Below, piece after piece: positions 12,796 to 41,493 of a DNA stretch of 64,000 bases. Where the stretch lies: the NCBI RefSeq assembly GCF_003991155.1, contig NZ_CP031293.1; one strand, written 5' to 3'. Made by a program: the position numbers and the translations under genes. Below the pieces are notes generated by a model, which saw nothing but the letters and a program-made list of their open reading frames with translations, searched no databases and was not told the DNA's origin. This DNA comes from Escherichia coli. Its GTDB lineage: Bacteria; Pseudomonadota; Gammaproteobacteria; Enterobacterales; Enterobacteriaceae. Positions within the stretch are counted from its first letter, which is position 1; the number at the start of each line of letters is the position of its first letter.

Positions 12796-13143
12796 TTACG
12801 AATTACTGCGGCGCTGTTGCTTTTCCGCATGTACGCGTTTCACAATCTTATAAATCCATTGCAGCGTCAGATTATATTTCTTCGCTAATTCGGCGTAGTT
12901 GCGCCCATCGCACTCGCTATAGATTTGGTAGTCACGCTCCGATGCTCGTCCGGAGATCCCCTTAGGGAAATAAATGCTTTGTCCGCCCCAGTTACGCATC
13001 ATTCGGTCGGCAATGGCAAAGCCCACATTTTCTGCCGATGAACTGTCGAGATTGATGCTTTCAATCAGAACTTGCGATGCATGAAAAGCCAGGTCGTTAA
13101 TGATCTCCGGTGTCCGGGCCATCTCTTTTGATTTTCGTATCAT
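12796..13143 (-). CDS. Mor/C-family (phage Mu middle/late) transcriptional activator
   Basis: 115-aa ORF; C-terminus GGQSIYFPKG...RDYQIYSECDGRNYAELAKKYNLTLQWIYKIVKR matches the conserved Mor/C HTH region (Mu Mor GGGQVYIPRG...RIWNDFNGRNVSELTTRYGVTFNTVYKAIRR); GGAG RBS 7 nt upstream. Confidence 0.8.
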   Translation of the reverse strand: MIRKSKEMARTPEIINDLAFHASQVLIESINLDSSSAENVGFAIADRMMRNWGGQSIYFPKGISGRASERDYQIYSECDGRNYAELAKKYNLTLQWIYKIVKRVHAEKQQRRSNS

Positions 13144-13364
13144 TTTTCATCTCCATATATCTTGCATCCTGAATAAGACCCGATGCGTGTAAAACCACGG
13201 ATATACGCTAAGCAGTTGTCATTACTGCTACTCAATACATTCAACAAACAAATAAACAATTAACAAAAATATAAATTTTTAATATTAATGAACGCCATAA
13301 ATTCATGAAATAGATATATTGTTTGCGTTATGTTTCTTGTCAACAGGTGTATCATTTTACACGA

Positions 13365-13384
13365 TACTGTATACACATACAGTA
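13365..13384. promoter_or_regulatory. LexA operator (SOS box) TACTGTATACACATACAGTA
   Basis: Matches consensus TACTGTATATATATACAGTA at 18/20 with both CTG/CAG half-sites perfect; flanked by inverted TTTTACAC / GTGTAAAA; overlaps a candidate plus-strand sigma-70 promoter (TTTACA-16-TACAGT). Confidence 0.7.
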
Positions 13385-13680
13385 TTATTTTTACTTGTAG
13401 TGTAAAAAGATCGTTTCCCTCACAGTCGCTGACTTTCTTAAACAAACTTTAAAAATCAAATAACTACTGACTATTCCTACGATTCACCATCATCTTTTCC
13501 CTGCATAATGACGCGCTTATTCGCGAGGTCACCTTTTGCTCTTTAATTGCTGAGTGGATTTATTAGCGGGCATGTTCATTTATAGAGAATCTATTTTTTA
13601 AACTTATTTATTAAAGCTTTTTTCATTCTTCACTGGCGGGTTCTGGCGACACTAAACGCTCACTTATCAGGAGATACCGT

Positions 13681-13968
13681 ATGAAAAAAGTCACTCTTCC
13701 CCGGCTTTCCGGTTGGCTGGTCGCTTCCGTCGCGCTGTTTGTCGTGATCGGCTGGACCTCTTCAGCACAAATCCCGGTCGTCATTTATAAACTAAGCCTG
13801 GTTTCGCTTTCCGCGGTGCTGGGATACTGGCTCGATCGCAGTTTGTTCCCCTGGGCACGGCCTGACTCTTTTTGCCCCTGGAAGGAACCGCGTTGCTGCG
13901 CGGCGGCAATGATTCGCCGGGCTATCATCGTTGCTGCCGTCTGCCTTTCCGTCGCGTTAGGGCTATAG
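13681..13968 (+). CDS. Putative holin-like small membrane protein (three predicted hydrophobic segments)
   Basis: 95-aa ORF with hydrophobic helices, immediately upstream of the endolysin gene; function inferred from position. Confidence 0.45.
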   Translation: MKKVTLPRLSGWLVASVALFVVIGWTSSAQIPVVIYKLSLVSLSAVLGYWLDRSLFPWARPDSFCPWKEPRCCAAAMIRRAIIVAAVCLSVALGL

Positions 13969-13970
13969 TG

Positions 13971-14576
13971 ATGTGGCTGAAATATATCGCGTCTATGATT
14001 ATTTTCGTTCTTTTCCCACTCAACGCCTCTGAACCGCCGAGAGCCTCTCTGGCATGGCGAAACGAACTAATTCGTACAGCTCGAGAAGTCTGGGGGCTGA
14101 ATGCCCCAGTGGCCGACTTTGCCGGGCAATTACACCAGGAGTCCGCCTGGCAGCCAATGGTACGTTCCCCCGTTGGCGCACAAGGTATGGCGCAATTTAT
14201 GCCTGCTACAGCGACATGGATAAGCCAGTTGTATCCACAATTGCGTGAAAACAAACCGTATAACCCAACCTGGGCGATTCGCGCGCTGGTGCAATATGAC
14301 CAGCATTTGTGGAAAAACATCTCTGCGAAAAATGATTGTCAGCGTATGGCGTTTACCCTAAGCGCCTATAACGGCGGTCAGGGGTGGGTTAACCGGGATA
14401 AAAAACTGGCTGCATCCAAAGGGTTAGATGCCACTAGCTGGTTTGGTCATGTTGAGCAAGTCAACGCCGGGCGCAGCGCCACGAACTGGCGAGAAAATCG
14501 TCGCTATCCAAAGATGATCCTCTATCAACATGCCGCCCGCTATTTACTCTGGGGACAGGCAAGCTGTCTTCATTAA
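13971..14576 (+). CDS. Endolysin, lytic transglycosylase (SLT domain) with hydrophobic N-terminus (signal or SAR-like)
   Basis: Motifs HQESAW and GAQGMAQFMPATA typical of the SLT catalytic region; start taken at the internal ATG at 13971 just after the upstream ORF stop. Confidence 0.8.
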   Translation: MWLKYIASMIIFVLFPLNASEPPRASLAWRNELIRTAREVWGLNAPVADFAGQLHQESAWQPMVRSPVGAQGMAQFMPATATWISQLYPQLRENKPYNPTWAIRALVQYDQHLWKNISAKNDCQRMAFTLSAYNGGQGWVNRDKKLAASKGLDATSWFGHVEQVNAGRSATNWRENRRYPKMILYQHAARYLLWGQASCLH

Positions 14577-15697: not shown

Positions 15698-17111
15698 TTA
15701 TCTGCACGGTGTAGAAACTATTGAAATTGAAACCGGCCCGCGTCCGGTTAAAGCGGTAAAATCCGCCGTCATCGCTTTAATCGGTACAGCCCCCTGCGGT
15801 CCGGTAAATAAACCAACATTATGCCTTTCTGAAAGCGATGCTGCGCAGTTTGGCTCGACTCAGGCTAACTTTACGATCCCACAGGCACTGAAGGCAATTT
15901 ATGACCACGGTGCCGGTACGGTGGTGGTGATTAACGTGCTGGATCCGGCAAAACATGGCTCCAACATCAGCAATGAGAGTATCACTTTTGATGCTAACAA
16001 CCAGGCGAAGCTCGCTCACCGCAATGTGCGTAACGTGGTACTAAAGCCCTCTTCATCAAATTCATCAACCTTTAACACCGCAGCATTTAGCGTAGATGAA
16101 CAAACAGGCATAATTACCCGTAAAGGAGCCGACATTCCTCCTGGTGCGAAAGTTTGTGCCTATTATTCCTGGTGCGACCCTACAAAGGTCACCGCAGCCG
16201 ATATTATCGGTACCGTAAATACCGCAGGCGACCGCACGGGGATGAAACTGCTACAGGACACCTATAACCTGTATGGTTTCTACGCCAAAATCCTGCTTGC
16301 TCCCGTGTTCTGTACGCAAAAATCAGTAACTACAGAGCTGATTGCACAAGCGGAAAAACTTGGTGCGATTACCTACATTGATGCCCCGATTGGGACGACA
16401 TTCCAGCAGGTATTGGCAGGACGCGGTTCGCAAGGGGCTATCAACTTCAACACCAGCTCTGATCGTGCGCGTTTATGTTACCCACACGTCAAAGTTTACG
16501 ATGGCATCACTAACCAGGAAGTTCTCGAACCGCTCTCTTCGCGCGCTGCCGGGCTACGTGCCAAAGTAGACCTCGAAAAAGGTTTCTGGTGGAGCAACTC
16601 AAACCAAGAAATTCAGGGTATTACCGGTATTGAACGTTCGCTTTCCGCAATGATTGATGATCCACAAAGCGAAGTGAATCAGCTAAACGAAAACGGCATT
16701 ACCACTATTTTCAATAGTTACGGCTCTGGTCTGCGCTTGTGGGGCAACCGCACTGCAGCGTGGCCTACCGTGACCCATATGCGTAACTTTGAAAACGTCC
16801 GCCGGACAGGCGATGTAATTAATGAGTCAATCCGTTATTTCAGTCAGCAGTATATTGATATGCCGATTAATCAGGCGCTGATTGATGCCCTGACCGAATC
16901 GGTAAATACCTGGGGCCGTAAGCTGATTGCCGACGGCGCACTGCTTGGCTTTGAATGCTGGTACGATCCGGCGCGAAATTCACCGACTGAACTCAGCGCT
17001 GGGCATTTATTGCTGAGCTATAAATTCACCCCACCGCCGCCGCTGGAACGTCTGACGTTTGAAACTGAAATTACTTCTGAATATTTAGTCTCTCTGGAGA
17101 GCAATAGCTAA
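15687..17111 (+). CDS. Contractile phage tail sheath protein
   Basis: About 474-aa ORF starting MAANYLHGVETIEIETGPRPV...; size and N-terminal motif typical of Mu gpL / P2 FI-type sheath proteins; RBS GAGGAAA upstream of the ATG at 15687. Confidence 0.85.
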   Translation: MAANYLHGVETIEIETGPRPVKAVKSAVIALIGTAPCGPVNKPTLCLSESDAAQFGSTQANFTIPQALKAIYDHGAGTVVVINVLDPAKHGSNISNESITFDANNQAKLAHRNVRNVVLKPSSSNSSTFNTAAFSVDEQTGIITRKGADIPPGAKVCAYYSWCDPTKVTAADIIGTVNTAGDRTGMKLLQDTYNLYGFYAKILLAPVFCTQKSVTTELIAQAEKLGAITYIDAPIGTTFQQVLAGRGSQGAINFNTSSDRARLCYPHVKVYDGITNQEVLEPLSSRAAGLRAKVDLEKGFWWSNSNQEIQGITGIERSLSAMIDDPQSEVNQLNENGITTIFNSYGSGLRLWGNRTAAWPTVTHMRNFENVRRTGDVINESIRYFSQQYIDMPINQALIDALTESVNTWGRKLIADGALLGFECWYDPARNSPTELSAGHLLLSYKFTPPPPLERLTFETEITSEYLVSLESNS

Positions 17112-17635
17112 TGGCTGGAAAAATTCAAATTAACCGTATTACCAACGCCAATATTTATCTCGATGGTAATAACCTTTTAGGTCGTGCAACCGAAATTAAA
17201 TTGCCGGATGTCAGTTTAATTATGCAGGAGCATAAAGCACTGGGCATGGTGGGTAAAATCGAACTCCCGGCGGGTTTCGATAAACTGGAGGGCGAAATTA
17301 AATGGAACTCCTTCTATCAGGACGTAATGCGTAAAACGGCAAACCCGTGGCAGGCGGTTGCATTACAGTGCCGCTCCAGTATTGATTGCTATAACTCCCA
17401 GGGGAAAGCGAATCAATTAGCGCTAGTGACACATTTAACCGTGATGTTTAAAAAGAATCCACTGGGCACATTTAAACAGAATGAAAACCCGGAATTCAGC
17501 AGCGCCTTTGGTTGCACTTATATTAAACAAGTAGTTGATGGTGAAACGCTGCTTGAACTTGATTATATGGCCAATATTTTCCGGGTTAATGGTGTGGATC
17601 AATTAAGTACCTATCGCAATAACATCGGTGGCTAA
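17111..17635 (+). CDS. Phage tail tube protein
   Basis: 174-aa ORF directly following sheath (TAATG overlap); sheath-tube order conserved in contractile tails. Confidence 0.8.
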   Translation: MAGKIQINRITNANIYLDGNNLLGRATEIKLPDVSLIMQEHKALGMVGKIELPAGFDKLEGEIKWNSFYQDVMRKTANPWQAVALQCRSSIDCYNSQGKANQLALVTHLTVMFKKNPLGTFKQNENPEFSSAFGCTYIKQVVDGETLLELDYMANIFRVNGVDQLSTYRNNIGG

Positions 17636-17685: not shown

Positions 17686-18003
17686 ATGAAAGAACATTAT
17701 ATCTTACAGTTCCCGTTTACTTCAGCGGCGGGAGACGTAATTAACACTCTGCAATTACGTCGCCTGAAAGTAAAAGATATGCGCAACGCGCGCCGGATCA
17801 GCGAAAAACCTGAAGAGTGGGATGAACCGCTAATGGCGGCAATGACCGGACTGGTGCCAGAAGATTTAGCTGAAATGGATTTGCTGGATTACCAGGCATT
17901 GCAGAAACGATTTCAATCCATGCTTAGCGTGGCTACAGAATCCGCCACTGTTATGGCAAGCGATGGCGTTACTGGCGAGATGGTTTCGCTTTCCACCCAG
18001 TGA
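17686..18003 (+). CDS. Putative tail assembly chaperone (gpE-like position)
   Basis: 105-aa acidic ORF between tube and tape measure genes. Confidence 0.5.
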   Translation: MKEHYILQFPFTSAAGDVINTLQLRRLKVKDMRNARRISEKPEEWDEPLMAAMTGLVPEDLAEMDLLDYQALQKRFQSMLSVATESATVMASDGVTGEMVSLSTQ

Positions 18004-18192
18004 GATAGACGCCCTTACCGTCGATGACTTTAGCAACTGGCTGGATGAAGCCAGCGCCCAAATAAAAATCGAATATGACTCGCAGACCTGATGTCTGCGA
18101 GTTTCCCAAGCCCGTCAGGTTTATTTCTTCCCTGCCCCTTTTTTTAGAAAAATAACCAGCGGGCCATTATCAATATTTAAAGAGAAACAATT

Positions 18193-20568
18193 TTGGCCAA
18201 CGATATTATTACCCAGCTTCAGGCGCGTAATGAGACGTTGACGCAGGCAATAGCCCGTTACGGCTCACTCAACGCCAGAACATTGTTAACTCTCTCTACT
18301 CAGCAGGCGACAGTTATCAAACTAACGCAGCAGCTTGCCGATTCCGCTCTCCGCCTGGAGGAAAATAGCCGCAGCCGCGCTAATCTGATGGAGAAAACCC
18401 AAACATTTGCCGGGCAATTTAGCAAAGTATTCAATGTTGAAGCCCCCGACTGGAAGTTGCCGTATGAGTTTCAGGACAACATGGTCAATATGGCGACCAA
18501 AGGTGGGATGAATGCTACAACCCGCGAGACGCTCAGCCTTAATCTGCGCGACTGGAGCATGGATTTTAACCAGCAGCAGACCACCTTACAGAACGCAGCC
18601 CAAACGCTGATCGAAGGCAATTTGTCGTCGATACAGGATCTCAACCGTTATATGCCGGAGATCGCCAAAGCTGCCACCGCCACGCGCGAAAGTGCTGAAA
18701 CATGGGCGAATGCCGCGCTCGCAACCCATGATCGACTGAATATTGCCCCGGAAAATTTCCACGCCGCGCAAAACATGATGTACGGCATTAGCAAAAGCGG
18801 TGGGCCTGCCATTGCTGAACAAACGCAGTGGATAGAGAAATTTGCAGGTAAAACCGGCGCTCAGGGTCTGGAAGGTATGGCTGAACTGACCGCCACCATG
18901 CAGATCGCCATGAAAAACGGGGCCAGCGCCAGTGCGGCGGCGGAGAATTTCGACCACTTTCTGCAAACCACCTTTTCGAAAAAAACCGATTACTGGTTCG
19001 TCAGCCAGGGCGTTGATCTGCAAGGCTCTCTGCTTGAGCATCAGCAAAACGGTATGGGTGTTAGCGAAGCCATGACTCATATCGTGCAAATGCAGCTTGA
19101 GAAGATGAATCCGGCGATCCTCGACACCTTCAAACGCACCATGCAGATCGAAGATTTATCTGCCCGCAGCAATGCGCTGCAATCGATGGTGACGCAGTTT
19201 AATCTGGGGGAAATGTTCGGCGATGCGCAAACAGTGGAATTCCTGGCCCCTATGCTGGCGAATATGGAGGAATATCGCCAGTTAAAAGCCTCTGCCATGC
19301 AAGCCACCAGCAAGAATCTGATTGATGCCGACTTTTCTGCGCAAATGGCCTCGCCCATTGAACAGACTAAAGCGTTACAGCTGGCGTTAAATGATTTATG
19401 GCTCAGCATTGGCTTGCAATTAATGCCGCTGATTGGCGAGCTGGCACAAAGCCTTACGCCGGTTATTCGTCAGTTCAGCGCCTGGCTACGTGAGCACCCG
19501 ACACTGGTGCAAAACATCGCGAAAATCGTCGGGGCGATTTGGCTGTTTAACGGTGCGCTGAATGTTTTAAAGCTGGGCGCGAACCTCATCACCTCGCCGT
19601 TTATTCGTCTGGTCGATATCTTCCTGAAAGTCAAGGCAAGTCTGGCGCTCACAGGCGGGGCAAGTAAGATGCTATCAGCGGTTAAGTCATTGGGTGGCGG
19701 CGCAAAATGGCTAACGCAACTGCTTGGTCGTGGCCTGATTGGAACATTGAAACTGGTTGGTCGGACCGTTCTCTCACTAGGCCGGGTGCTACTGATGAAT
19801 CCCATTGGTCTGGTCATCACTGCGATTGCGGGCGCTGCTTATCTGATTTATCGCAACTGGGAGCCTATCTCCAGGTTCTTTTCGACCATCTGGCAACGTA
19901 TCACCACGGCCTTTGACGGCGGCATTGCAGGAATTTGTCGGTTGATTCTCGACTGGTCACCGCTGGAGTTGTTCTATAGCGCCTTTTCCAGTGTGATGAA
20001 TTGGTTTGGTGTCGAGATGCCTGCAAGTTTTAGCGAGTTCGGCAGCAATCTTCTGGGCAGTCTGGTTGACGGCATAATGAATGCCTTCCCCGCTCTGAAA
20101 GGCATTATTGATCAGGTAAAAAACGCCATCCCAGACTGGCTAAAAACCACGATGGGTATTAGTACAGAAGGATCGGCTACAGCTATTACAAGCACGACTA
20201 ATACCGCATCCGTCTCCCCCGCGACCGTTGTTCCAGGCGTTGCCGGTGCGATTTTAACGCCGCCGGTGGGCAAACAACTCGCGCCATCCGGCAAAACGGC
20301 TACGCCGTCATCGGCGCCAGCGGCAAAAAATACAGCCGCCAAACCCGTATCTGCCTCTTTACCTGGTAAATCCGTAACCAAAGCGGCGACGCTACCTTCC
20401 CGTTCCTCAGGAAAAGTTCAGGTGAATTTTTCGCCACAAATTACCGTGCAGGGTAACGGACAAAACACCACTAAAGAGATTCAGAACGTGTTGACGATGA
20501 GTAAACGCGAACTGGAAAGAATGATTAACGATGTAATGGCGCAGCAGCAGCGCCGGGGGTATGCCTAA
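18193..20568 (+). CDS. Tail tape measure protein
   Basis: 791-aa ORF, alpha-helical and Ala/Gln-rich with central hydrophobic segments; position after chaperone; start codon uncertain (TTG at 18193 in track). Confidence 0.8.
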   Translation: MANDIITQLQARNETLTQAIARYGSLNARTLLTLSTQQATVIKLTQQLADSALRLEENSRSRANLMEKTQTFAGQFSKVFNVEAPDWKLPYEFQDNMVNMATKGGMNATTRETLSLNLRDWSMDFNQQQTTLQNAAQTLIEGNLSSIQDLNRYMPEIAKAATATRESAETWANAALATHDRLNIAPENFHAAQNMMYGISKSGGPAIAEQTQWIEKFAGKTGAQGLEGMAELTATMQIAMKNGASASAAAENFDHFLQTTFSKKTDYWFVSQGVDLQGSLLEHQQNGMGVSEAMTHIVQMQLEKMNPAILDTFKRTMQIEDLSARSNALQSMVTQFNLGEMFGDAQTVEFLAPMLANMEEYRQLKASAMQATSKNLIDADFSAQMASPIEQTKALQLALNDLWLSIGLQLMPLIGELAQSLTPVIRQFSAWLREHPTLVQNIAKIVGAIWLFNGALNVLKLGANLITSPFIRLVDIFLKVKASLALTGGASKMLSAVKSLGGGAKWLTQLLGRGLIGTLKLVGRTVLSLGRVLLMNPIGLVITAIAGAAYLIYRNWEPISRFFSTIWQRITTAFDGGIAGICRLILDWSPLELFYSAFSSVMNWFGVEMPASFSEFGSNLLGSLVDGIMNAFPALKGIIDQVKNAIPDWLKTTMGISTEGSATAITSTTNTASVSPATVVPGVAGAILTPPVGKQLAPSGKTATPSSAPAAKNTAAKPVSASLPGKSVTKAATLPSRSSGKVQVNFSPQITVQGNGQNTTKEIQNVLTMSKRELERMINDVMAQQQRRGYA

Positions 20569-21521: not shown

Positions 21522-21730
21522 TGCGATACCTTGAACATATCACCACCGATGGCGAACGCTGGGATAACCTGGCATGGCATTACTACGGTGATGCGCTGGC
21601 TTATGAACGCATAATCGCCGCCAATCCACATGTAGCCATTTACCCGGTACTGCCTTCCGGTATTCAGCTCATTATTCCGGTCATTTCCGTTAATAAAACC
21701 TTATCGGAGATCCCACCATGGCTGAGATGA
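21521..21730 (+). CDS. Tail protein X-like (small LysM-like tail protein)
   Basis: 69-aa ORF with AANP...LP.G pattern as in P2 gpX; located between U-like and D-like genes as in R-type pyocin clusters. Confidence 0.7.
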   Translation: MRYLEHITTDGERWDNLAWHYYGDALAYERIIAANPHVAIYPVLPSGIQLIIPVISVNKTLSEIPPWLR

Positions 21731-22758
21731 GCGTAACTGGTGGCGTCTTTGCCACACTCACGCCCATTTTTACCCTCTGGTATGGGCATAAAGATATCAC
21801 TTATGACATCACACCCTATGTCACCAGCATCAGTTACCACGACAGCATCAAAAACGAGTCGGATACCATCGCAATTACACTGGATGACACAGATGGACGC
21901 TGGATAAAAGAGTGGTATCCCGGCAAAGGCGATACGCTGGCGCTGCATATAGGTTATCAGGGGGAAAAGCTGCTCGATTGTGGCCAGTATATTATTGATA
22001 AAATTGATATTTCAGCGCCACCTTCCACGGTAAATATTGATGGCATCGCCACTTCCGTCAATCAGGCGCTGCGCACCCGTAACAGCCAGGGCTTTGAAGA
22101 AACGACGCTTTCGGCGATCGCCAGCCGTATTGCCCAAACGCACGGTCTGAAACTGGTGGGCAAAATCGAGTCGCTCACCATCGACCGGGTAACGCAGTAT
22201 GGTGAAACCGATGTCGGATTTCTCAAACGTCTGGCCAGTGAATATGGTTATGCCGTAAAAGTGACGACAAAAGAGCTGATTTTTTCACATTTACCCACGC
22301 TGCGCTGCCTGACGCCTGTGAAAAAGATCGATCGCAAAGAGGTTTCTCATTTTACCTTCAAAGACACCATTAACCGGATCTACAAGAACGCCACCGTACA
22401 GCATCAAAATAGTAAGAAAAAAGAACTGGTTATCTACACTCACAACAGCCAGCAAAAACCATCTGTCCGTGGAGTCGGCACTAGTGCCGACACGCTAAAA
22501 CTGAACAGTCGGGCGACGGACGTTGGCGCAGCACAGGCAAAGGCTAACGCTGCACTCGACAGCCACAACGAATATCAGCAAACCGGAACGCTCACAATGA
22601 TGGGCTGCCCGGAACTGACGGCGGGCAATAAAATTGAACTGACCGATTTTGGCGTGATTTCCGGTCAGTGGCTGATTGATAAATCTACTCACAGTTTTGT
22701 GCGCAGCGGCTATACCACTGAAATCGACGTGTCACGCGGGCCAGCGACCAGCCAGTAA
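21718..22758 (+). CDS. Phage late control D-like / Mu gpP-like tail (baseplate hub) protein
   Basis: 346-aa ORF in the conserved U-X-D position. Confidence 0.75.
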   Translation: MAEMSVTGGVFATLTPIFTLWYGHKDITYDITPYVTSISYHDSIKNESDTIAITLDDTDGRWIKEWYPGKGDTLALHIGYQGEKLLDCGQYIIDKIDISAPPSTVNIDGIATSVNQALRTRNSQGFEETTLSAIASRIAQTHGLKLVGKIESLTIDRVTQYGETDVGFLKRLASEYGYAVKVTTKELIFSHLPTLRCLTPVKKIDRKEVSHFTFKDTINRIYKNATVQHQNSKKKELVIYTHNSQQKPSVRGVGTSADTLKLNSRATDVGAAQAKANAALDSHNEYQQTGTLTMMGCPELTAGNKIELTDFGVISGQWLIDKSTHSFVRSGYTTEIDVSRGPATSQ

Positions 22759-22767
22759 GGAGGAAAT

Positions 22768-23469
22768 ATGAAAGGAGTAACCCGTCAAACGGGGATTATC
22801 AGCGATATTGACGAAACCAGTGTTCGGGTACGGGTCACTCTACCAGAGTGTGACAATCTGAAGAGCAACTGGCTTGCGGTACTTCAACGCAATTCCCAGG
22901 ACAATAAAGACTACTGGCTACCGGATATGGGCGAGCAAGTGGAAGTTCTGCTGGACGATAACGGTGAAGATGGCGTGGTGCTGGGTGCCGTTTATTCTAC
23001 GGTTGACACCGCGCCTGTAGCCTCGCGCGACAAACGTTACGTCCAGTTTTCTGATGGCGCAGCGTTTGAATATGACCGCAGCACGCACCAGCTGACGATT
23101 AACGGCGGTATCGAGAAAATCGTGATTGAGGTTATCGACAGCACCCGCCTGACATCGCCCAACGTTGAGATTAAAGCCCAACACGTCACCGTGACTTCCG
23201 ATACCGTCGATGTTAAAGCGACCGATGTCAGCATCGACGCCACTAAGGTCGAGGTTAAAGCAGCAGCAGTGACGGTAGATGCGCCCATGAGCACCTTTAC
23301 TGGCAACGTCACGGTAATGAAAAAACTCACCTGGCTTGGCGGGATGGCAGGAAGTGGAGGCATCGGTAACGCAGCCACGATAACCGGCAATGTCAACGTG
23401 ATCGGCAACGTTCAGGCCAGCGGCGCATTGCAGGACAGCGGTGGCAACTCCAACCACCATTCACACTGA
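22768..23469 (+). CDS. Baseplate assembly protein V-like (central spike)
   Basis: 233-aa ORF; N-terminal OB-fold-like region and C-terminal repetitive beta region (VTVTSDTVDVKATDVSIDATKVEVKAAAVTVDA) typical of gpV spikes. Confidence 0.8.
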   Translation: MKGVTRQTGIISDIDETSVRVRVTLPECDNLKSNWLAVLQRNSQDNKDYWLPDMGEQVEVLLDDNGEDGVVLGAVYSTVDTAPVASRDKRYVQFSDGAAFEYDRSTHQLTINGGIEKIVIEVIDSTRLTSPNVEIKAQHVTVTSDTVDVKATDVSIDATKVEVKAAAVTVDAPMSTFTGNVTVMKKLTWLGGMAGSGGIGNAATITGNVNVIGNVQASGALQDSGGNSNHHSH

Positions 23470-23472
23470 CTT

Positions 23473-23505
23473 TTAACCCGCCTGATGGCGGGTTTTCTCT
23501 TTTTA
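23473..23505 (+). terminator. Hairpin (AACCCGCCtgatGGCGGGTT) plus T-rich tract after the spike gene; possible partial intra-operon terminator
   Basis: Perfect 8-bp stem followed by TTCTCTTTTT. Confidence 0.5.
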
Positions 23506-23567
23506 ATCAATCAGTTTTCTAAATCGCTTTAATATCTCCACAGCCCGTTCAGGGCGAAAATACCCTC

Positions 23568-23927
23568 ATGAACACAAAAACACGCCCCTCAACGCTGCAC
23601 TGGCAACCGGCCTTGCAGCGGCCTGAAGAATACGTCTGCGGGCTGGATGATATTCACCAGGCAATACACATCATTCTGCGTACACCGCGCGGCAGTGATC
23701 CCCACAGACCGCTGTTTGGCAGCAACTTGTGGCACTACATCGATTACCCCATCGAGCGGGCTATCCCGCATGTGGTACGGGAGTCGGTGGAAGCCATCCG
23801 CCAGTGGGAACCGCGCTGTCGGTTGCTGAAGGTGACACCAGTAATCGACGGCGAACATCTGACGTTACGTGTGCAATGGCGCGCCGCTGACGGCGTTATC
23901 AACTCAACGGAGGTGTTATGGCGATAG
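23568..23927 (+). CDS. Baseplate wedge protein gpW / gp25-like
   Basis: 119-aa ORF; PRGSDPHRPLFGSNLWHYIDYP resembles the GPW_gp25 family core. Confidence 0.75.
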   Translation: MNTKTRPSTLHWQPALQRPEEYVCGLDDIHQAIHIILRTPRGSDPHRPLFGSNLWHYIDYPIERAIPHVVRESVEAIRQWEPRCRLLKVTPVIDGEHLTLRVQWRAADGVINSTEVLWR

Positions 23928-25033
23928 CCGAACCCAATTTTATTGACCGCGATCCTGCGCAAATTACCAGTGAGATGATTGCGCAATACGAAGATGCCAG
24001 TGGTAAAAAACTCTATCCGGCACAGGCTGAGCGGTTGCTCATCGACCTGTTTGCCTATCGTGAAAACCTTGTACGCATCGCCATTCAGGAAGCGGCGAAA
24101 CAAAACCTGGTCGCGTATTCCCGCGCGCCAATGCTGGATTATTTAGGGGAGTTGGTGGGAGTTCACCGTTTGCCTGCGCAGCCTGCAAAAACGACGTTGC
24201 AGTTTTCGGTCGTTAGTGCGTATCCCGGCAATATCCTGATTCCCCAGGGGACGCGGGCCAGTGCCTCTGATAGCGTGATGTTCGCCACCGATGAAGATGT
24301 TCTGCTTCCGGCCAGGAGTTTGCATATCGCCGTTCCTGCCACCAGCCTCGCAGCAGGTGAACAGGGTAACGGCTGGCAGCCTGCACAAATTAGCGCACTG
24401 GTCGACAGGATTGGTCATTATGACATCAACGTAACCAACCTGACTGCGTCAACGGGCGGCTGCGGTGAAGAGAGCGATGACGCATTGCGCCAGCGTATCC
24501 AACTGGCACCAGAAAGCTTTAGTAATGCGGGCAGCTATGGTGCCTACCGCTTTCATACGCTTTCTGTTAGCCAGTCGATTATTGACGTTGCAGTACTGGG
24601 GCCGGACGAGGGATTGCCAGAAGGCTGCGTGGAGATCTACCCGCTAACCCTGAATGGTCTACCCGGCACGGAGTTGCTGGCGCAGATTGAACAAGAAGTC
24701 AGCAAGGAGAAAAAACGACCGCTGACCGACAAAGTGAGTGCGAAATGCGCTCTTCGAGTGCCGTATGAGATCCGTGCGCAGCTAATGCTGTTTACCACCG
24801 CCGATCAGGAGACAACGCTGGCTGCGGCGCGTAAAGCGATTAGCCTCTGGACGCAACAGCGGCAGAAACATCTGGGGCAGGACATTGTGCCAAACCAGAT
24901 AATCAAAGTGTTACAGGTCGATGGCGTCTATGACGTTGCGCTGAATATGCCTACAAAACGTATTTTGCAGGCGCATGAATGGGCGGAATGCACTGCAATA
25001 GACGTCACGATTGCCGGAGTCAGCGATGGATAA
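23918..25033 (+). CDS. Baseplate protein J-like
   Basis: 371-aa ORF after gpW with GGAGG RBS; W-J-I order. Confidence 0.8.
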   Translation: MAIAEPNFIDRDPAQITSEMIAQYEDASGKKLYPAQAERLLIDLFAYRENLVRIAIQEAAKQNLVAYSRAPMLDYLGELVGVHRLPAQPAKTTLQFSVVSAYPGNILIPQGTRASASDSVMFATDEDVLLPARSLHIAVPATSLAAGEQGNGWQPAQISALVDRIGHYDINVTNLTASTGGCGEESDDALRQRIQLAPESFSNAGSYGAYRFHTLSVSQSIIDVAVLGPDEGLPEGCVEIYPLTLNGLPGTELLAQIEQEVSKEKKRPLTDKVSAKCALRVPYEIRAQLMLFTTADQETTLAAARKAISLWTQQRQKHLGQDIVPNQIIKVLQVDGVYDVALNMPTKRILQAHEWAECTAIDVTIAGVSDG

Positions 25034-25742
25034 ATTGCTGCCACCGCCGCCGCTTGCCAGCGATGAGCGTTTTTCGATTCTGGCAAACATCGCCGCCGAG
25101 CGTTTTGCCCAACTCGATCTGACGGCGTTGATGGTTTATCTGGTCGACCTGGTTGATGCTTCGGCATTACCAGCCCTTGCAGAACAATTTCACGTTCAGG
25201 GGCTGGAAGGTTGGTTATTTACCACCGATGAGCGGGAGAAACGCGAGTTAATTAAACAAGCCATTGAACTGCATAAATATAAAGGAACAATTTGGGCGGT
25301 ACGGCGAGTGCTGGAAATACTTTCCTTACCCGGAACTATTTCAGAATGGTTTGAATATGGGGGAAGGGCTTATTTTTTTAAGGTAAATATTACACTAGAG
25401 GAAAAAGGATTAAATGAAGATGAATTCAATGCACTTATCACATTAATTCATGAATATAAAAATGTTCGTTCAAAGCTGGAAAGCATTGTTATTTGGCTTA
25501 TTAATCGAAGCCCAATACCAGTTATTGGCAGCGCCATGCAAGGAGGGGAAGTCATTACAGTATTGCCTCCTGTTGCAGAAAGCCTCAGCCAGTCATCAGG
25601 AATATTTTTAGCGACGGGTTATTGTGTGGAGGAATATATCCAACTACTACCTTATCAACCCGATCGCCTTACACAATCCCAACCGATGAAGGTCGGCACA
25701 GGATACTGGAGCACCGAAATTATGTCTGTATATCCGGAGTAA
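25026..25742 (+). CDS. Tail protein I-like (baseplate)
   Basis: About 238-aa ORF from ATG 25026 overlapping J stop; position before tail fiber. Confidence 0.7.
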
Positions 25743-25744
25743 TA

Positions 25745-27325
25745 ATGGCAAGTGAATTTTTTACAATATTAACTGCTGCAGGCAAAGCCAAAATTGCCTC
25801 AGCACTGGCCGAGCAAAAACAGATCCGTCTGCAAACTATGGTAGTTGGCGACGGTAATGGTAAATATATCGAACCGACAGAAAGTCAGACCAAAGTAGTC
25901 CATGAGGTCTGGCGTGGTCAGCTCAATACATTAAAAATTGCGCCAGATAATCCGGCCTGGGTTATCGCAGAAGCGATTATTCCCGAACAAGTCGGAGGCT
26001 GGTATGTACGCGAAGTTGGGTTACTGGATACCGACGGCACGCTGGTCGCTATTGGTAAATTCCCGGAAACCTATAAGCCACGATTACCTGCGGGGGCCAG
26101 TAAGCAAATCGTTATACGCGCGGTCATGGAAGTCACCAATGCAGACGCGGTGACGCTTTTGATCGACCCTTCAGTCGTTGTGGCAACCAGGGAATATGTC
26201 GATGACGCGTTGAAAACACATCAGCAATCACGAAATCATCCTGATGCGACGCTGACACAAAAAGGTTTTACGCAGCTCAGTAATGCAACTAATAGCGATG
26301 ATGAGACTAAAGCAGCCACGCCAAAAGCGGTAAAAACGGCATATGACCTGGCAAATAGCAAAGCCGCAACCAGTCATACTCATGCCTGGAATCAGATTAC
26401 TGGTATCCCTGACGGTACACTGACGCAGAAAGGAGTCGTTAAACTTAACAACACAACAAATAGCACCAGTACAACGGAAGCTGCAACGCCAAGTGCGGTT
26501 AAAGCAGCGATGGACAAGGCTATTGCTGCGGCGCCGTCCAGCCATACCCATGCCTGGGGGCAAATAACAGGTATCCCCGACGGTACGCTGACACAAAAAG
26601 GGGTCGTGAAACTTAATAATGCGACCAACAGCACCAGTACGACGGAAGCTGCGACGCCGAACGCGGTTAAGGCAGCGATGGATAAGGCTATTGCTGCGGA
26701 AAGCTGTCCTGTTGGGATGCCTATTCCCTGGCCATCTGATTCTGTACCTTCAGGCTACGCTCTGATGACAGGTCAGACATTTAATAAAACCTCCTATCCC
26801 AAACTGGCAATTGCATATCCATCTGGTGTTATTCCTGATATGCGCGGATGGATAATTAAAGGAAAACCATCCAGTGGGCGCGCTATATTATCTACTGAAC
26901 TGGATGGAGTTAAATCACATAACCATACGGGCAGTATTTCGAGTACTGATTTAGGGACGAAAACCACACCCCTCACAGACTTGGGGACTAAAACTGCATC
27001 ATCATTTAACCATGGAAATAAAACAACAAGTTCATCTGGCTCAGGCTCGGCAACTGCAACAGTAAGAACAGGGACATCTTCACCAGAGGGCCAAGGCGAC
27101 TGGACATCATATGGCCCTGGTACCGGATCATCTTTGGCAATTAATGTTCCATCACACGTTCATAGTGTTACAATTGGTTCCCATTCGCACACTGTTGCGC
27201 TCGGCACCCATTCGCATTCAATTGCACTTGGTTCCCATAACCACTCCCTAACCATTAATAATACCGGCAGCACCGAAAACACCGTCAAAAATATCGCATT
27301 CAACTATATTGTGAGGCTAGCATGA
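25745..27325 (+). CDS. Tail fiber protein (P2 gpH-like N-terminal anchor, repeat region, His-x-His tip)
   Basis: N-terminus [23 protein letters not shown]...HEVWRGQLN...[12 protein letters not shown] resembles the conserved P2 H N-terminal domain; three tandem ~45-aa repeats; C-terminal [22 protein letters not shown]. Confidence 0.85.
26244..26700 (+). repeat. Intragenic tandem repeats (three ~135-bp units) within the tail fiber gene
   Basis: Repeated [12 protein letters not shown](A/T)[12 protein letters not shown](S/N)[12 protein letters not shown]...HTHAW(N/G)QITGIPDG seen at DNA and protein level. Confidence 0.7.
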
Positions 27326-28029
27326 ATACTTTTACCTTTTCTGATGAAGCTCAAATACTAACTGTATATAATTTTTCACAAGACTCCCAAGAATATATCG
27401 GTGAGTCTGATGCATACATTGCACCTAATACAGGCTTGCCAAATTATTGCACATTAATTTCACCTCCCGAAAAGGCTCCTGGTTTTACTCCAGTGTGGGA
27501 GAATGAAACATGGAGACTTATTGAAGATCATCGAGGCCAAACTGTTTATAACAAAGTTGATGGTAGCCAGCTTATTATTCAAGAATTGGGCCAATTACCT
27601 GAAAATGTAACAGTCATTTCCCCGACAGGTTCTTTTGAACGTTGGGATGGTGAAAAATGGCAACCATCTATAACCGATGCTAAAGAGGCGAAATACTCTG
27701 CAATCAAAAATCAACGCGATGCCATCACAACCGATTACATCATCATCAACAACCATCACTTCCACAGTGATACAAATAGCCGTATCCAACAGCTTTCACT
27801 CACAAAAATGGGAGCGGAGAAAAAAATTCCGCCAGGGTTAATGTGGAAAACTAAAAATAATGGTCTGATTGAGTTAACCAACGAAATCGCTGCCCAGTTT
27901 GAATCGGTCACCATGGATCACGATATGCGCTTGTTCGCAAACGCCCAGCGTCATATCGCGGCGGTGGAAGCACTGGACGATATTCAGGCGGTGCTCGACT
28001 ACGATTATTCAACAGGCTGGCAACCATGA
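27322..28029 (+). CDS. Tail fiber assembly (chaperone) protein
   Basis: 235-aa ORF overlapping the fiber stop (ATGA); lower GC than surrounding genes, typical of host-range modules. Confidence 0.75.
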
Positions 28030-28481
28030 GTAAAACCACTGTCTGGCTCGCTTGTTATAAGGGCCGAACAGAGCACCGTGGTATTGCCCGACTGGCTGAC
28101 TGGCTTACCCGTAAAATCACACGCGGTAGTTATTCCCACTGTGAATTAGCCGTTAAGCATGGTGAAAAGAGATACCTTTGTTACTCCGCATCACTGCGCG
28201 ATCGCGGTGTACGCGGAAAAATAATGCCATTGCCAGCGGATAAGTGGGATATGCTGCCGCTCCAGGCCAGCCTTCAGGATGTGGAAACTTTTTTCCGTAA
28301 ACATGATGGCAAAAAATATGACTGGCGCGGAGCATTAGGAATTATTATCGGTAATAAAGAACAGCGCGATCGCCTGTTTTGCAGTGAATTTTGTGCTGAA
28401 TTTCTGCAACTGAAGGAAAGCTGGCGCTATTCTCCAAACCACTTGTACGCTTTAGTCAGTAGCTGGCAATATCAGCCGTAA
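28026..28481 (+). CDS. Hypothetical protein (151 aa), Cys/His-containing, translationally coupled to tail fiber assembly gene
   Basis: Intact ORF with ATGA overlap to upstream gene; no confident family assignment. Confidence 0.5.
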   Translation: MSKTTVWLACYKGRTEHRGIARLADWLTRKITRGSYSHCELAVKHGEKRYLCYSASLRDRGVRGKIMPLPADKWDMLPLQASLQDVETFFRKHDGKKYDWRGALGIIIGNKEQRDRLFCSEFCAEFLQLKESWRYSPNHLYALVSSWQYQP

Positions 28482-28495
28482 AATAACGCCGGGCA

Positions 28496-29296
28496 TCACG
28501 CCCGGCGCATTACCGTCTGGTACAGTAAACTATCCAGTTCCTTAACGTCCCCTTCTCTGCTATCCGGTAACACTGGTGGAGTTTCCCCGCGCGCCAGCTC
28601 CGCGCGAATAAACGCATGTAACAAAGGACGACGCGGACCATATTCCGCCTCCCCCGCTCGCTGTTTACGCTCCAGCAGTTCGTCTATTTCTACGCGTAAC
28701 GGCGCATCAAGCTCGCTTCCCGCCAGTAACTCGGAAAAGCGCATTGGCGGCACGCCTTTTCCCGCTTCAACCCAGCGTACGGCCAGCAGCGGACGCAGCA
28801 CGTAAAAGTATTTTTTCAGTCGAACTTCATCGCCCTGCAAATAGCCGCGGAAGTTTTTCTGCGCCATCGAATAGTAATGCCAGCGTGCACGCAACGAAGA
28901 AAACCACATTGGGACCATTGCCTTAAGCGCCGTTATCGTTTCTTCATCTTGTTGATAGACCACCGGAGAATCCAGCCATTCTATCAGCGTCGGATTCGCG
29001 CCTTTCAATAATCCCAGCGCCTTACGCCACTCCCAACCGGAAACATCTAATTCGTCGTCGATGGGCAGCTCGATAACATCGCGCGGTGACTCTACACGCA
29101 GATACCATTCCAGCGGATGGACATACAAAAACCGTACATCGTAGTCGCTATCGGGCGAGGCAAATCCCCAGCCGCGGCTGCCTGATTCGCAGGCGTACAG
29201 CACTTTCACGCCATAGAGACGTTCTATTTCTTTTAACTGCTGCGATACCCGTTCGCGCATCGCAGCACTGACTCCATTTAATGGCATGTTACTCAC
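28496..29296 (-). CDS. Pol-beta-superfamily nucleotidyltransferase-domain protein
   Basis: 266-aa ORF with N-terminal motif ESGSRGWGFASPDSDYDVRF (GS-x9-12-D-x-D nucleotidyltransferase signature); C-terminal ~200 aa unassigned. Confidence 0.7.
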   Translation of the reverse strand: MSNMPLNGVSAAMRERVSQQLKEIERLYGVKVLYACESGSRGWGFASPDSDYDVRFLYVHPLEWYLRVESPRDVIELPIDDELDVSGWEWRKALGLLKGANPTLIEWLDSPVVYQQDEETITALKAMVPMWFSSLRARWHYYSMAQKNFRGYLQGDEVRLKKYFYVLRPLLAVRWVEAGKGVPPMRFSELLAGSELDAPLRVEIDELLERKQRAGEAEYGPRRPLLHAFIRAELARGETPPVLPDSREGDVKELDSLLYQTVMRRA

Positions 29297-30420
29297 CCTT
29301 TGATATTAACCAACCCATGCAGAACCTGATCCAGACCGCCAAATACAGAGATGTTATCGATCCGCTCAGCCACTCTCTCCAGCGTTTCCAGTTCTTTTAA
29401 GCGTAACGCCACCGGGTTGTTTTCCATGACTTTAGCGGTATTGAGTAACGAACGTGTCGCTGCCGTTTCTTCACGCCGACGAATCACATTCGCCTGCGCA
29501 GATTTCTCTGCCTCAACCAGCTGCGCGAGGATATTTTTCATATCACCAGGCAGGACGATATCTTTCACCCCTAATGAGGCAATCTCCATACCAAATGGCA
29601 ACATACGCGATTTAACCTGTTCGCTGACAACGTCATCAATGACCTGTTTATCTTCCAGCAACTCATCCAGCGTACGCGTACCTACCGCTTCACGCAGTGC
29701 AAATTGCAATTCCCGATACAAATGATCAATCGGCTTCGTTAACTGACTAAATGCCAATAACACGTCGCTGTAGCGCCAGTTGGCGGCGAGGTTAATCCGC
29801 AGATTGACCTTATCTTTCGTTAAGATTTCTTGCCCGCTGACTTCCAGTACCTGCAAGCGGGTGTCAACCACTTCAGCTTCAACCAGATGGTTAATTTTCC
29901 AGTACGCAGTCAGCCCCGGCGGTAACAGCGCCTGCGTTTCACCATCGATTTTCAGTACACCTACGTGCCAGGCCGGAACCTGCACCGTCAGTATCGCATC
30001 GCGGCCTTTAACTGCCCCTTTGCGCCGTGGCTGCAATACCGCATTCATCACCTCCGTTTGAACCTGGACTTGCTGCGTATTCATCCGCACCAGCGTCAAA
30101 TCATCCTCTACACGCCAGTACAAACGACGCGTTGATGGCGGCAGGATCTCCAGCAAAATACCGTCCATATACAACGCCCCGGCTTCAGTCTCCGACAAGT
30201 CGGCCACCACGCAATATCTTTCCACCCAATCAGGCTGAAAGCGGCGCAAATAATCCGCCAGCACGTCGGGAACTTCGCTGCCATCGAACGTAATCAGCAA
30301 GACTTCTGGCGTATTTAACCAGGGTAAAAGATGCTCGCCTGCATGCAGCACTTTGTAGTAATCGCCATTTCTGGAGAGTAATGCCAGCTGATCTTTTCTT
30401 ACGCTTATTTTCTTAATCAT
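29293..30420 (-). CDS. SPFH (band-7/stomatin-prohibitin-flotillin) domain protein with ~170-aa N-terminal extension
   Basis: 375-aa ORF; C-terminal half shows SPFH-like region followed by coiled coil (EAEKSAQANVIRRREETAATR...); 4-nt overlap with downstream NTase gene; AGGAA RBS. Confidence 0.75.
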   Translation of the reverse strand: MIKKISVRKDQLALLSRNGDYYKVLHAGEHLLPWLNTPEVLLITFDGSEVPDVLADYLRRFQPDWVERYCVVADLSETEAGALYMDGILLEILPPSTRRLYWRVEDDLTLVRMNTQQVQVQTEVMNAVLQPRRKGAVKGRDAILTVQVPAWHVGVLKIDGETQALLPPGLTAYWKINHLVEAEVVDTRLQVLEVSGQEILTKDKVNLRINLAANWRYSDVLLAFSQLTKPIDHLYRELQFALREAVGTRTLDELLEDKQVIDDVVSEQVKSRMLPFGMEIASLGVKDIVLPGDMKNILAQLVEAEKSAQANVIRRREETAATRSLLNTAKVMENNPVALRLKELETLERVAERIDNISVFGGLDQVLHGLVNIKG

Positions 30421-39861: not shown

Positions 39862-41493
39862 TTAATACTCGTCCCGTCCTTCGTCTTCATCCGGCTGTTC
39901 CAGCACACTGTAAGCCACCGAACAAAACAGCGAGTTCAGACGCTGCATATCTCCCAGTAAGCCTAAATGTAGCGAACTGGTTTCAATGCTTTGCACGTTT
40001 TGCTGATGCAGGCGATCGACGTGAGCATGGGAATAACGGCGATTAAGAATGCGAAAGCGATGCTTGCTGCGGCGCAAACGACGGGCGCTGGTAACATCGC
40101 CAGAGAAGAAAACCGACATTGCCAGTTTTAAATTACTGAGCAATTGCTCATAGAGCGCATCCAGTTCCTTCAAGCCATCAAGCGAAAATGCCCGCCGTGC
40201 TGCCAGCGATTTATCGGCAATTTCGCTCCCCATGCGCTCGACGATATCGGAGGCCTGTTCAAGGTTGAGCGACATTTCGATGATCTCCGCCCAGCGGCGC
40301 GACTCTTCCTCCGCCAGCTCTTCTTTTGGCATCCGCGCCAGATACAGCTTAATGGCGGTATAGAGAACGTTGATATCATCTGCCAGCTTACGCAGCTCTT
40401 TCTCCTGCCGTGGCTCGCCGTGCATCACTTTATTCAGCCCTTCCATCATCTGTTCCATGGCGTCGCCAATGCGCAGGGTTTCGCGCGCGGCGTTCGCCAG
40501 AGCAAGCGTGGGCGTATCCAGCGCGCTGACATCCAGATGTTTGGGTCGTAGCTGGGTATCCAGTTCCGGTTCATCGCGAATAATCGTTTTGCAAAACCGT
40601 GCCATCGGGTCAACAAATGGCAGCATGACCAGGCAGCGTACAAGGTTGTAGAAGACGTGGAAATAGATCACCAGTTCCGCTTTTGGCAGTGGCAACTTCC
40701 CCATTGTCTCTGCCAGCAAATGGACAAACGGCAGGATAATCAGGCTACCCACCAGCTTAAACAGCAGGCTACCCAGCGCGACACGGCGGGCTGCGGCATT
40801 GGCGGCACTGTTGTTGAGCATCGCCAGCAGACCGGAACCGAGGTTAGCACCAATCACCAGACAGAGCGCCACGGGGAAGGAGATAATGCCTGCGGCGGTC
40901 AGAGTCGCGGTCAGCAGTACAGCAGCAAGGCTGGAGTAGCTGATAATGGCGAACATCGCGCCAATCAGCGCATCCAGCAGAATATCGCCGGTCAGCGAGG
41001 CAAAGATCACCTGAACGCCGTTTGCCTGGGTGATCGGCGTTACGGCCTGCACAATCAACTCCAGCGCCAGCAAAATCAGCCCAAGACCAATACCGACGCG
41101 GCCCAGTTGCCCGGCGCGTGACTGTTTGCGTCCGAGGAAAAAAATCACGCCGATAAAAATAAGTAACGGTGACAGCCAGGATAAGTCGAAGGTGAGAATA
41201 CGCGCCATTAGCGCCGTCCCGACATCTGCACCCAGCACAATCACCAGAGCCGGTGCGAGGGCTACCAGATCCTGAGCGACAAACGAGGTCACCAGCATGG
41301 TGGTGGCATTACTGCTCTGCACCAGTGCGGTAACGCCTATCCCCGCGCAAAAGGCGAGCGGCTTCTTTTCGACGCTTCGGCTAAGAACAGTACGCAGACG
41401 CGCGCCGAAGACGCGCATTACGCCGGTTCGAACAATATGAGTCCCCCAGACCAGCAGGGCGACGGCAGAAAGCAGGTGAAGCAAAGTTAGCAC
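39862..41493 (-). CDS. yjbB: Na+/phosphate symporter family protein YjbB
   Basis: 543-aa polytopic ORF MLTLLHLLSAVALLVWGTHIVRTGVMRVFG... with C-terminal PhoU-like region. Confidence 0.93.
   Translation of the reverse strand: MLTLLHLLSAVALLVWGTHIVRTGVMRVFGARLRTVLSRSVEKKPLAFCAGIGVTALVQSSNATTMLVTSFVAQDLVALAPALVIVLGADVGTALMARILTFDLSWLSPLLIFIGVIFFLGRKQSRAGQLGRVGIGLGLILLALELIVQAVTPITQANGVQVIFASLTGDILLDALIGAMFAIISYSSLAAVLLTATLTAAGIISFPVALCLVIGANLGSGLLAMLNNSAANAAARRVALGSLLFKLVGSLIILPFVHLLAETMGKLPLPKAELVIYFHVFYNLVRCLVMLPFVDPMARFCKTIIRDEPELDTQLRPKHLDVSALDTPTLALANAARETLRIGDAMEQMMEGLNKVMHGEPRQEKELRKLADDINVLYTAIKLYLARMPKEELAEEESRRWAEIIEMSLNLEQASDIVERMGSEIADKSLAARRAFSLDGLKELDALYEQLLSNLKLAMSVFFSGDVTSARRLRRSKHRFRILNRRYSHAHVDRLHQQNVQSIETSSLHLGLLGDMQRLNSLFCSVAYSVLEQPDEDEGRDEY

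Follow-up and report, generated by a model that had tools for sequence, protein, structure and literature searches.

A mosaic fibre gene in a head-less tail cluster

The 64,000-nucleotide stretch of Escherichia coli DNA analysed here (contig NZ_CP031293.1; the window) is chromosomal, with 2 mismatches over 42,737 positions against strain 2016C-3878, and carries a block of P2-type tail genes that is closed by a mosaic tail fibre gene and the gene of a fibre assembly protein, called the helper below. RefSeq annotation of the near-identical strain and Pfam identify in this block a Mor-family activator, a holin, a lytic transglycosylase, a membrane protein, a Gp37-family protein, sheath, tube, assembly chaperone, tape measure, gpU, X, D, V, W, J, I, the fibre and the helper. 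The fibre gene comes after the gpJ and gpI genes, which is the order known from P2, and the block as a whole sits between lysC and yjbD/rluF, with housekeeping genes on either side. No capsid, replication or integrase gene is annotated in the cluster by RefSeq in the near-identical strain; this annotation and three other strains describe a complete contractile-tail and lysis gene set that is head-less and occupies a fixed chromosomal site. The segment from the fibre gene through the helper to the next open reading frame (ORF), 25745-28481, is matched at 100% in many other strains. The fibre, the helper and the gene upstream are organized as follows (aa, amino acids).

25026..25742 (+): gpI-type baseplate wedge gene, 238 aa, with PF09684 (Tail_P2_I) at aa 14-153
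25745..27325 (+): tail fibre gene, 526 aa, ATG at 25745; matches phrog_295, tail fiber, with E 3e-213
25745..26191 (+): N-terminal baseplate anchor of the fibre (aa 1-149), P2 gpH / R-pyocin Prf15 type, PF12571
26237..26698 (+): three Phage_fiber_2 shaft repeats (aa 165-220, 221-276 and 277-318)
26693..27322 (+): predicted receptor-binding tip of T4 gp37 type (aa 317-526; collar and His-x-His needle), from phmmer against PDB 2XGF
26918-26926 (+): fifth His-x-His motif of the needle (aa 392), aligning with T4 gp37
27040..27174 (+): apical hypervariable needle segment (~aa 432-477), the sole segment that does not align between the window and strain MS6198
27155..27244 (+): four descending-strand His-x-His motifs at 9-aa spacing (aa 471, 480, 489, 498), a 27-nt periodicity
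27322..28029 (+): helper (assembly) gene, 235 aa, with an ATGA overlap with the fibre gene
27322..27705 (+): fibre-specific N-terminal domain of the helper (aa 1-128), T4 gp38 / lambda Tfa type; downstream end of the exchanged cassette
27706..28029 (+): constant C-terminal DUF4376 domain of the helper (aa ~129-235), PF14301; conserved backbone

The fibre is a three-part chimera that joins a gpH-type anchor and a Phage_fiber_2 shaft to a tip of the T4 gp37 type. A P2 gpH-like N-terminal anchor had been proposed in a preliminary description of this DNA, and the Pfam family PF12571 (formerly DUF3751) confirms it with E 1.6e-59 over profile positions 1-149 of 150. The same description gave three tandem repeats of ~45 aa, of which the number is right and the length is not: PF03406 matches in three stretches (E 8e-52, Pfam), and since the motif TLTQKG recurs at aa 169, 225 and 281 the period is 56 aa, or 168 nt. 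Tandem Repeats Finder reports this 168-nt period with 2.0 copies at 83%; copies 2 and 3 share 95% of their residues and 83% of their nucleotides, and copy 1 is 60-63% identical to either. The first repeat aligns to residues 99-155 of Mu gpS in PDB 5YVQ. When repeat number was compared among strains, it was found to vary with the allele, from three in the window to four in the glycine-rich alleles introduced below and two in Salmonella Infantis.

The C-terminal part of the fibre had been likened to the His-x-His tips of T4-type fibres because of a His-rich string of 22 residues (aa 480-501, nt 27182-27247), and this resemblance reflects true homology. In a phmmer search, aa 317-526 align to residues 25-242 of 2XGF, which correspond to residues 809-1026 of T4 gp37, with E 1.8e-63; the identity to this known receptor-binding domain is 54.3% (tblastn). 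A Collar domain (PF07484, 42.2 bits against a cut-off of 24 in Pfam) precedes the needle at aa 324-370, and the C-terminal 17 residues equal the T4 sequence exactly. Seven His-x-His motifs occur in the fibre where 0.59 +/- 0.74 are expected, a count reached in none of 20000 shuffles. Five of them lie in the needle (aa 392, 471, 480, 489 and 498), and two form SHTHAW linkers at aa 211 and 267, after shaft copies 1 and 2. Iron-binding motifs in T4 gp37 start at residues 883, 915, 929, 966, 980, 989 and 998, and the window fibre keeps five of these seven positions: aa 392 aligns with H883, and aa 471 to 498 align one-to-one with H966, H980, H989 and H998. Sister alleles keep six or all seven. So far as sequence comparison can settle it, the fold of the fibre tip may be regarded as settled.

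Exchange of the cassette between strains

The cluster was surveyed in 5426 complete E. coli genomes with a backbone query (21718-25200, 95-100% identity). It is present in 194 of them, once each and always in the chromosome, and the insertion site between lysC and yjbD is identical in every strain examined. At least four cassette alleles occupy this backbone. The needle apex of the window is found in 59 genomes and that of MS6198 in 83, and a glycine-rich fibre cassette is carried by 38 genomes, with 9 more holding partial or variant forms. Two alternative fibre alleles, each with four Phage_fiber_2 repeats, were delimited at the same chromosomal locus.

L003 10944-12770: fibre allele of strain G3X16-2
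L004 10944-12713: fibre allele of strain CH4796

Two scales of replacement emerge from these comparisons. MS6198 and the window are ~97% identical throughout except at the needle apex, where 27040-27174 cannot be aligned; this 135-bp segment has been swapped independently, nested inside the larger cassette. On the larger scale, G3X16-2 and CH4796 match the backbone to ~25529 and again from ~27705. In between, their gpI C-terminus, fibre anchor and repeats share ~71% DNA identity with the window, their tip is a glycine-rich domain (PF21722, Gly_rich_2) and not a His-x-His needle, and their helper begins with a short unrelated N-domain of its own that is joined to an essentially identical DUF4376 half. 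The upstream edge is gradual: gpI alleles start out 94-98% identical, share 80-82% over 25217-25516 and have 46% identity past 25517, and the gpI of the window allele contains a 28-aa insertion. Both breakpoints lie inside genes at domain junctions and keep the reading frames, and the fibre anchor co-varies with the gpI C-terminus.

The exchanged unit comprises the gpI C-terminus, the whole fibre and the N-terminal half of the helper, from ~25217/25530 to 27705, with the DUF4376 half of the helper assigned to the conserved backbone. Strain ws5-3 illustrates the exchange most directly. It combines a window-type cassette (92-98% identity) with a backbone 99-100% identical to that of G3X16-2, and this pairing shows transfer of the cassette between backbones. 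The preliminary description had suggested a horizontally exchanged host-range cassette made of the 3' part of the fibre gene and the assembly gene. Exchange is upheld by the four or more cassettes and by ws5-3, and it is the extent of the unit that has to be redrawn.

Base composition follows the same boundaries. GC content is 0.508 in the sheath-to-gpI backbone, 0.403 in the 3' part of gpI (25217-25744), 0.49 in anchor and repeats, 0.456 in collar and needle, 0.385 in the 5' half of the helper gene and 0.460 in its 3' half. Composition is therefore not uniform across the module, with 0.385-0.456 in the tip and the 5' half of the helper against 0.508 in the backbone. Tip and helper 5' half together (26693-27705) reach 0.43, and a GC content this low occurs in just 2.7% of 1013-nt windows across the 64 kb. 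The AT-richness reported earlier for the 3' fibre gene and the assembly gene is real, with a different extent: it also takes in the 3' part of gpI and ends midway through the assembly gene. GC at third codon positions (GC3) is 0.41 in the fibre, 0.38 in the helper and 0.39 in gpI, against 0.50-0.67 from the tape measure gene through gpJ, and the dips in GC and GC3 coincide with the ends of the cassette.

Such a dip could in principle be an accident of amino-acid content or local codon bias that says nothing about horizontal exchange. A needle rich in Ser, Thr, Asn and His favours AT-rich codons, and the tail tube gene (17111-17635) is AT-rich as well, with a GC content of 0.42, though its protein is fully conserved and has no amino-acid difference to that of G3X16-2 (rates of nonsynonymous and synonymous substitution, dN and dS, of 0 and 0.20). 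Because of this gene, low GC alone is no marker of exchange in the cluster. GC3, however, falls together with overall GC, to 0.38-0.41, and the comparison of alleles reveals exchange independently of composition. As a sufficient explanation the accident is thereby refuted, and we regard it as highly improbable.

Regarding the origin of the cassette, the tip is 53-63% identical to fibres of lambdoid, P2-like and T4-like phages, so that gp37-like tips occur in all three groups. DNA similarity to Chlobot, P2_4A7b, Ro157c2YLVW and JL22 spans the junction of fibre and helper, from which it follows that the tip and the N-domain of the helper travel together. A near-identity search of the cassette against 50,697 phage records gave no match, and at more than ~85% DNA identity the cassette occurs in no phage or other E. 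coli locus searched. Since no near-identical phage record exists among these and the tip reaches at most 63% in distant and protein searches, the cassette cannot be traced to a recent phage donor. Prophages of E. coli were considered as a source, through a second copy, and rejected, as the tip segment is found once per genome and only in this cluster. Site-specific inversion or shufflon-type switching was likewise rejected: the cluster contains no invertase and only weak inverted repeats of 14-19 nt.

A hybrid helper for interchangeable tips

The helper is also a hybrid, in which a gp38/Tfa-like N-terminal half is followed by DUF4376 in place of the canonical Tfa C-terminus. Its first ~145 residues are 44% identical to Tfa of the lambdoid phage Chlobot (BLASTP E 4e-40), and its N-terminal part is 38% identical to a P2-like Tfa and 25% to T4 gp38 (E 1e-11). 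Precomputed Pfam assignments list Caudo_TAP_N. Caudo_TAP itself (PF02413) scores 31 bits against a cut-off of 22.1 and covers profile positions 1-74 only; the helical C-terminal part of the profile (positions ~75-131) is unmatched, and DUF4376 stands there instead (PF14301 at aa 119-227, 54.5 bits against a cut-off of 25). By comparison, the Caudo_TAP match extends from position 1 or 2 to 131 in both Mu gpU and Chlobot Tfa. In this context, our Pfam result for Mu gene U (L013 3976-4503), a full Caudo_TAP and not DUF4376, conflicts with the placement of DUF4376 in Mu U in PMC7882524.

The two halves behave differently among alleles. The N-domain cannot be aligned with the helpers of the glycine-rich fibre alleles; the DUF4376 half is near-identical in protein and 94-96% identical in DNA in all alleles compared. 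An AlphaFold2 model of the helper (pLDDT, the predicted local distance difference test score, of 93.6) contains a beta-rich N-domain at aa 11-115 and a helical C-domain with two beta-hairpins at aa 117-226, whose helices span residues 117-136, 151-165, 187-216 and 221-226. Foldseek searches of BFVD find the modelled DUF4376 fold again in many phage DUF4376 proteins, to E 7.7e-11. Homologues that match the hybrid helper over its full length are found in E. albertii, Enterobacter, Citrobacter, Lelliottia, Superficieibacter and Serratia. The sequence P0007, examined as a possible hybrid of the N-domain with a canonical Tfa, was rejected because it is the same gene cut short by an insertion sequence (IS) element.

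This organization agrees in several respects with known fibre systems. Mosaic tail fibres were described for lambda (Stf/Tfa), P2 (H/G), Mu (S/U) and P1 by Haggard-Ljungquist et al. in 1992, as cited in PMC6629978, and the window fibre follows the same plan, in which the N-terminal anchor is conserved, the receptor-binding part at the C-terminus varies and the chaperone gene is transferred along with it, whereas the window copy resides in a head-less chromosomal cluster. For Mu Tfa (TfaMu), North et al. 2019 (as quoted in PMC7882524) put forward a modular model with a variable N-domain matched to the fibre C-terminus and a conserved C-domain. The cassette breakpoint falls at just this junction between the variable and the conserved domain of the helper, although the conserved module here is DUF4376 and not the C-terminal half of Caudo_TAP, and BLASTP of the helper against Mu gpU gives E 0.058. 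DUF4376 proteins encoded with fibres have been found experimentally to be required chaperones in Alteromonas phage V22 (gp27; PMC10579305) and the Campylobacter CJIE1 prophage (PMC7882524). V22 gp27, A5 gp9 (PMC10579305) and the CJIE1 protein (PMC7882524) resemble the helper in having a C-terminal DUF4376, a gene just downstream of the fibre and a predicted helical body with beta-hairpins. With T4, homology extends over the whole collar and needle (domains D10-D11, 2XGF) and over the N-domain encoded by the next gene, which is homologous to gp38. Unlike in T4, the tip is fused to a P2-type anchor and a Phage_fiber_2 shaft instead of the ~800-aa shaft of gp37, the chaperone ends in DUF4376 and not in the gp38 C-terminus, and no gp57A-like gene was seen in the cluster.

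If the helper acts as these comparisons suggest, its variable N-half would grip the C-terminus of the fibre and its constant DUF4376 half would drive nucleation of the trimer, in analogy to the modular Tfa model. The 235-aa protein might instead stay on the tip as a cap or as the actual adhesin, like T2-type gp38 or Mu Tfa, in which case the gp37-like apex would not be the sole determinant of specificity. Mu Tfa and the DUF4376 protein V22 gp27 indeed stay on their fibres, where a capping role has been proposed, and the DUF4376 half, with 110 aa, is well folded in the model and bigger than the C-terminal helix of a canonical Tfa. An adhesin would be expected to vary, however, whereas this half is constant across unrelated tips; the N-half is homologous to T4 gp38, a catalyst absent from virions; and the hypervariable segment lies in the fibre apex, to which receptor contacts map in T4 (PMC6957217). 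We therefore consider a cap or adhesin unlikely and favour a folding chaperone.

A candidate tailocin of E. coli and Salmonella

Taken together, the two genes would encode the receptor-binding fibre and the folding chaperone of a P2-type head-less contractile-tail cluster, a candidate R-type tailocin, exchanged as a cassette; we assign this reading a probability of about three in four. R-pyocins and the kosakonicin of Kosakonia (PMC6629978) offer the closest precedent. They too are P2-derived, head-less tail clusters with a lysis cassette, and strains differ mainly at the fibre locus, whose product combines a conserved N-terminus of ~150 aa with a variable C-terminus. For these systems particles and killing have been demonstrated, whereas the window cluster is a candidate. 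The tips of R-pyocins are lectin-like with a single iron site and that of the window is a needle, and kosakonicin loci hold up to three fibre genes where the window cluster holds one. The iron of R-pyocin fibres is bound by a His-x-His motif in the shaft, and the SHTHAW linkers of the window fibre may by analogy bind metal as well.

Orthologues at the same site in Salmonella add an evolutionary perspective. The cluster between lysC and yjbD corresponds to STM4198-STM4212 and beyond in LT2, and its fibre gene STM4200 has been used as a Typhimurium-specific marker in the polymerase chain reaction. Nine tail genes have a dN/dS of 0-0.2 within E. coli; in comparison with Salmonella the tail genes reach 0.04-0.12 at a dS of ~1.1-1.9 for most genes and 0.59 for W. 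These low ratios show strong purifying selection and argue for long-term maintenance of the cluster. In Salmonella Infantis SARB27 a gtrABC operon for O-antigen glucosylation lies between V and W (L006 6187-9022; LT2 STM4204-4206), and its product might alter the surface of the producer itself as a form of self-protection.

The locus could also be read as a decaying prophage remnant without present function, whose fibre cassettes are the leftovers of independent prophages. The missing head, replication and integration genes would fit such a remnant, as would the pseudogenes and IS insertions of some strains and the lack of a published function. Yet ~17 tail and lysis genes are all intact in the window, and site and gene order are shared by E. 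coli and Salmonella at the divergence and dN/dS just given. The backbone, moreover, is 94-100% identical around different cassettes, and together with the frame-keeping breakpoints at domain junctions this conservation points to replacement within a maintained unit and not to independent insertions. We hold a functionless remnant to be decidedly unlikely.

Several observations nonetheless weigh against a maintained tailocin with a T4-like needle and a DUF4376 chaperone. Decay is evident in some strains: the tape measure gene (18193-20568), intact in the window, has an internal stop in 2016C-3878 (L001 12449-14824), an IS element (DDE_Tnp_1) truncates the helper gene in GCA_030294225 (L014 9001-10660), and the fibre gene is fragmented in ws5-3 (L010 9528-10775). 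A literature search found no paper on particles, killing or function from this cluster. The closest phage tips are 54-63% identical to that of the window. In addition, the window allele has no equivalents of T4 H915/H917 and of the apical pair H929/H931, and its apex loop is unrelated to that of T4. The apical pair is reported to be essential in T4, where it adjoins the receptor-contact residues 933-949 (PMC6957217), and because its equivalents are missing the apex of the window fibre may fold unlike the T4 model. Finally, the DUF4376 domain has no significant match among solved structures, including Mu Tfa and the intramolecular chaperones of T5 and K1F, so that a trimer-nucleating role is supported by analogy only.

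Two further features follow the helper gene.

28026..28481 (+): ORF of 151 aa, the last gene of the operon, with an ATGA overlap with the assembly gene and translationally coupled to it
28486..28508 (no strand assigned): GC-rich hairpin from a terminator scan, a 10-pair stem with 8 GC pairs, between the convergent 151-aa ORF and RlaP gene

The 151-aa protein is 97-99% identical (2-5 differences in 151 aa) across the four E. coli alleles compared, and a diverged homologue is present in Salmonella (STM4198, L006; dN 0.17). It matches phrog_1128, an 'enoyl-CoA hydratase-like' moron, with E 8e-59, and has no match in Pfam, NCBIfam or PADLOC. Its sole hit among solved structures, to the NlpC/P60-like cysteine peptidase 3KW0, is not significant (E 0.4); the protein contains the His/Cys-bearing stretches SHCE and FCSEF. 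The hairpin is likely to mark the end of the tail operon. Beyond it, a convergent pair of genes (28496-30420, -) encodes an RlaP-family nucleotidyltransferase and an SPFH/slipin protein; in all E. coli strains examined the pair separates the tail cluster from yjbD, whereas Salmonella carries different genes there, and the pair has no match in PADLOC. Scans for defence systems and with NCBIfam returned nothing informative for the three genes downstream of the helper.

Other parts of the window deserve brief mention. At the lysC-proximal end of the island, an AT-rich patch (12550-14500, GC ~0.40) spans the Mor-family activator gene (- strand, ~12796-13143), a divergent intergenic region and the holin gene, and is likely the regulatory region of the cluster. 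Ahead of the tape measure gene, at 17686-18190, a different frame stays open behind the tail assembly chaperone gene (105 aa) and ends in IEYDSQT and a stop, as would fit the programmed frameshift product usual at this place (P2 E/E'). AT-richness in the window is highest at ~41150-42900 (GC 0.34 over 1 kb), a patch that overlaps two small hypothetical genes (- strand, ~41664-42476) between yjbB and metH.

How the cassette would work can be sketched from the structures of T4 gp37 and R-pyocins. The fibre would form a trimer in which each triplet of His-x-His motifs binds one buried iron on the three-fold axis; the needle would then hold five such sites, and the shaft perhaps two more. The hypervariable segment aligns to the tip subdomain of T4 gp37 (~residues 929-966), and receptor-contact residues of T4 map to this apical subdomain (PMC6957217). 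By analogy, the loop at the far end of the needle (~aa 432-477) may contact the receptor, an outer-membrane protein or the lipopolysaccharide core of enterobacteria. Homologous recombination in the conserved flanking sequence would replace the whole unit, and each cassette allele would give the particle a different killing spectrum. From the genomic context we infer an R-type tailocin, with the cassette as the determinant of its spectrum. The preliminary description had also expected the cassette to set the target spectrum of the particle, as it would if particles are made. With repeat length and boundaries corrected, the interpretation offered there is otherwise supported.

The finding is a clear case of textbook tail-fibre mosaicism with an ordinary mechanism, and it has been known since 1992 that a fibre tip can pass together with its chaperone, as one unit, from one kind of tail to an unrelated one. 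What sets this locus apart is modest: a T4-type needle on a head-less chromosomal P2-type tail, DUF4376 in place of the Tfa C-terminus, the loss of the apical His-x-His motif in this allele and a swap confined to the apex. Its breakpoints, moreover, fall at domain junctions and can be located with a precision of a few hundred bases. In a broader and more tentative reading, for which our confidence stays somewhat short of even, the cassette is the module that confers specificity on an uncharacterised R-type tailocin, domesticated long ago and shared by E. coli, Salmonella and other Enterobacteriaceae. Its alleles, two with T4-needle apex types and two glycine-rich, would then define intraspecific killing groups in ~3.6% of E. 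coli, with one constant DUF4376 trimerisation module fused to interchangeable fibre-specific adaptors.

The cluster looks like a native tailocin of E. coli and Salmonella that is undescribed in the literature searched. Its four alleles constitute a natural experiment on the receptor specificity of T4-type needles and on tailocin retargeting. The constancy of DUF4376 next to unrelated tips further suggests a rule for engineering, namely to swap from the middle of gpI to the domain junction of the chaperone and to keep the DUF4376 half.

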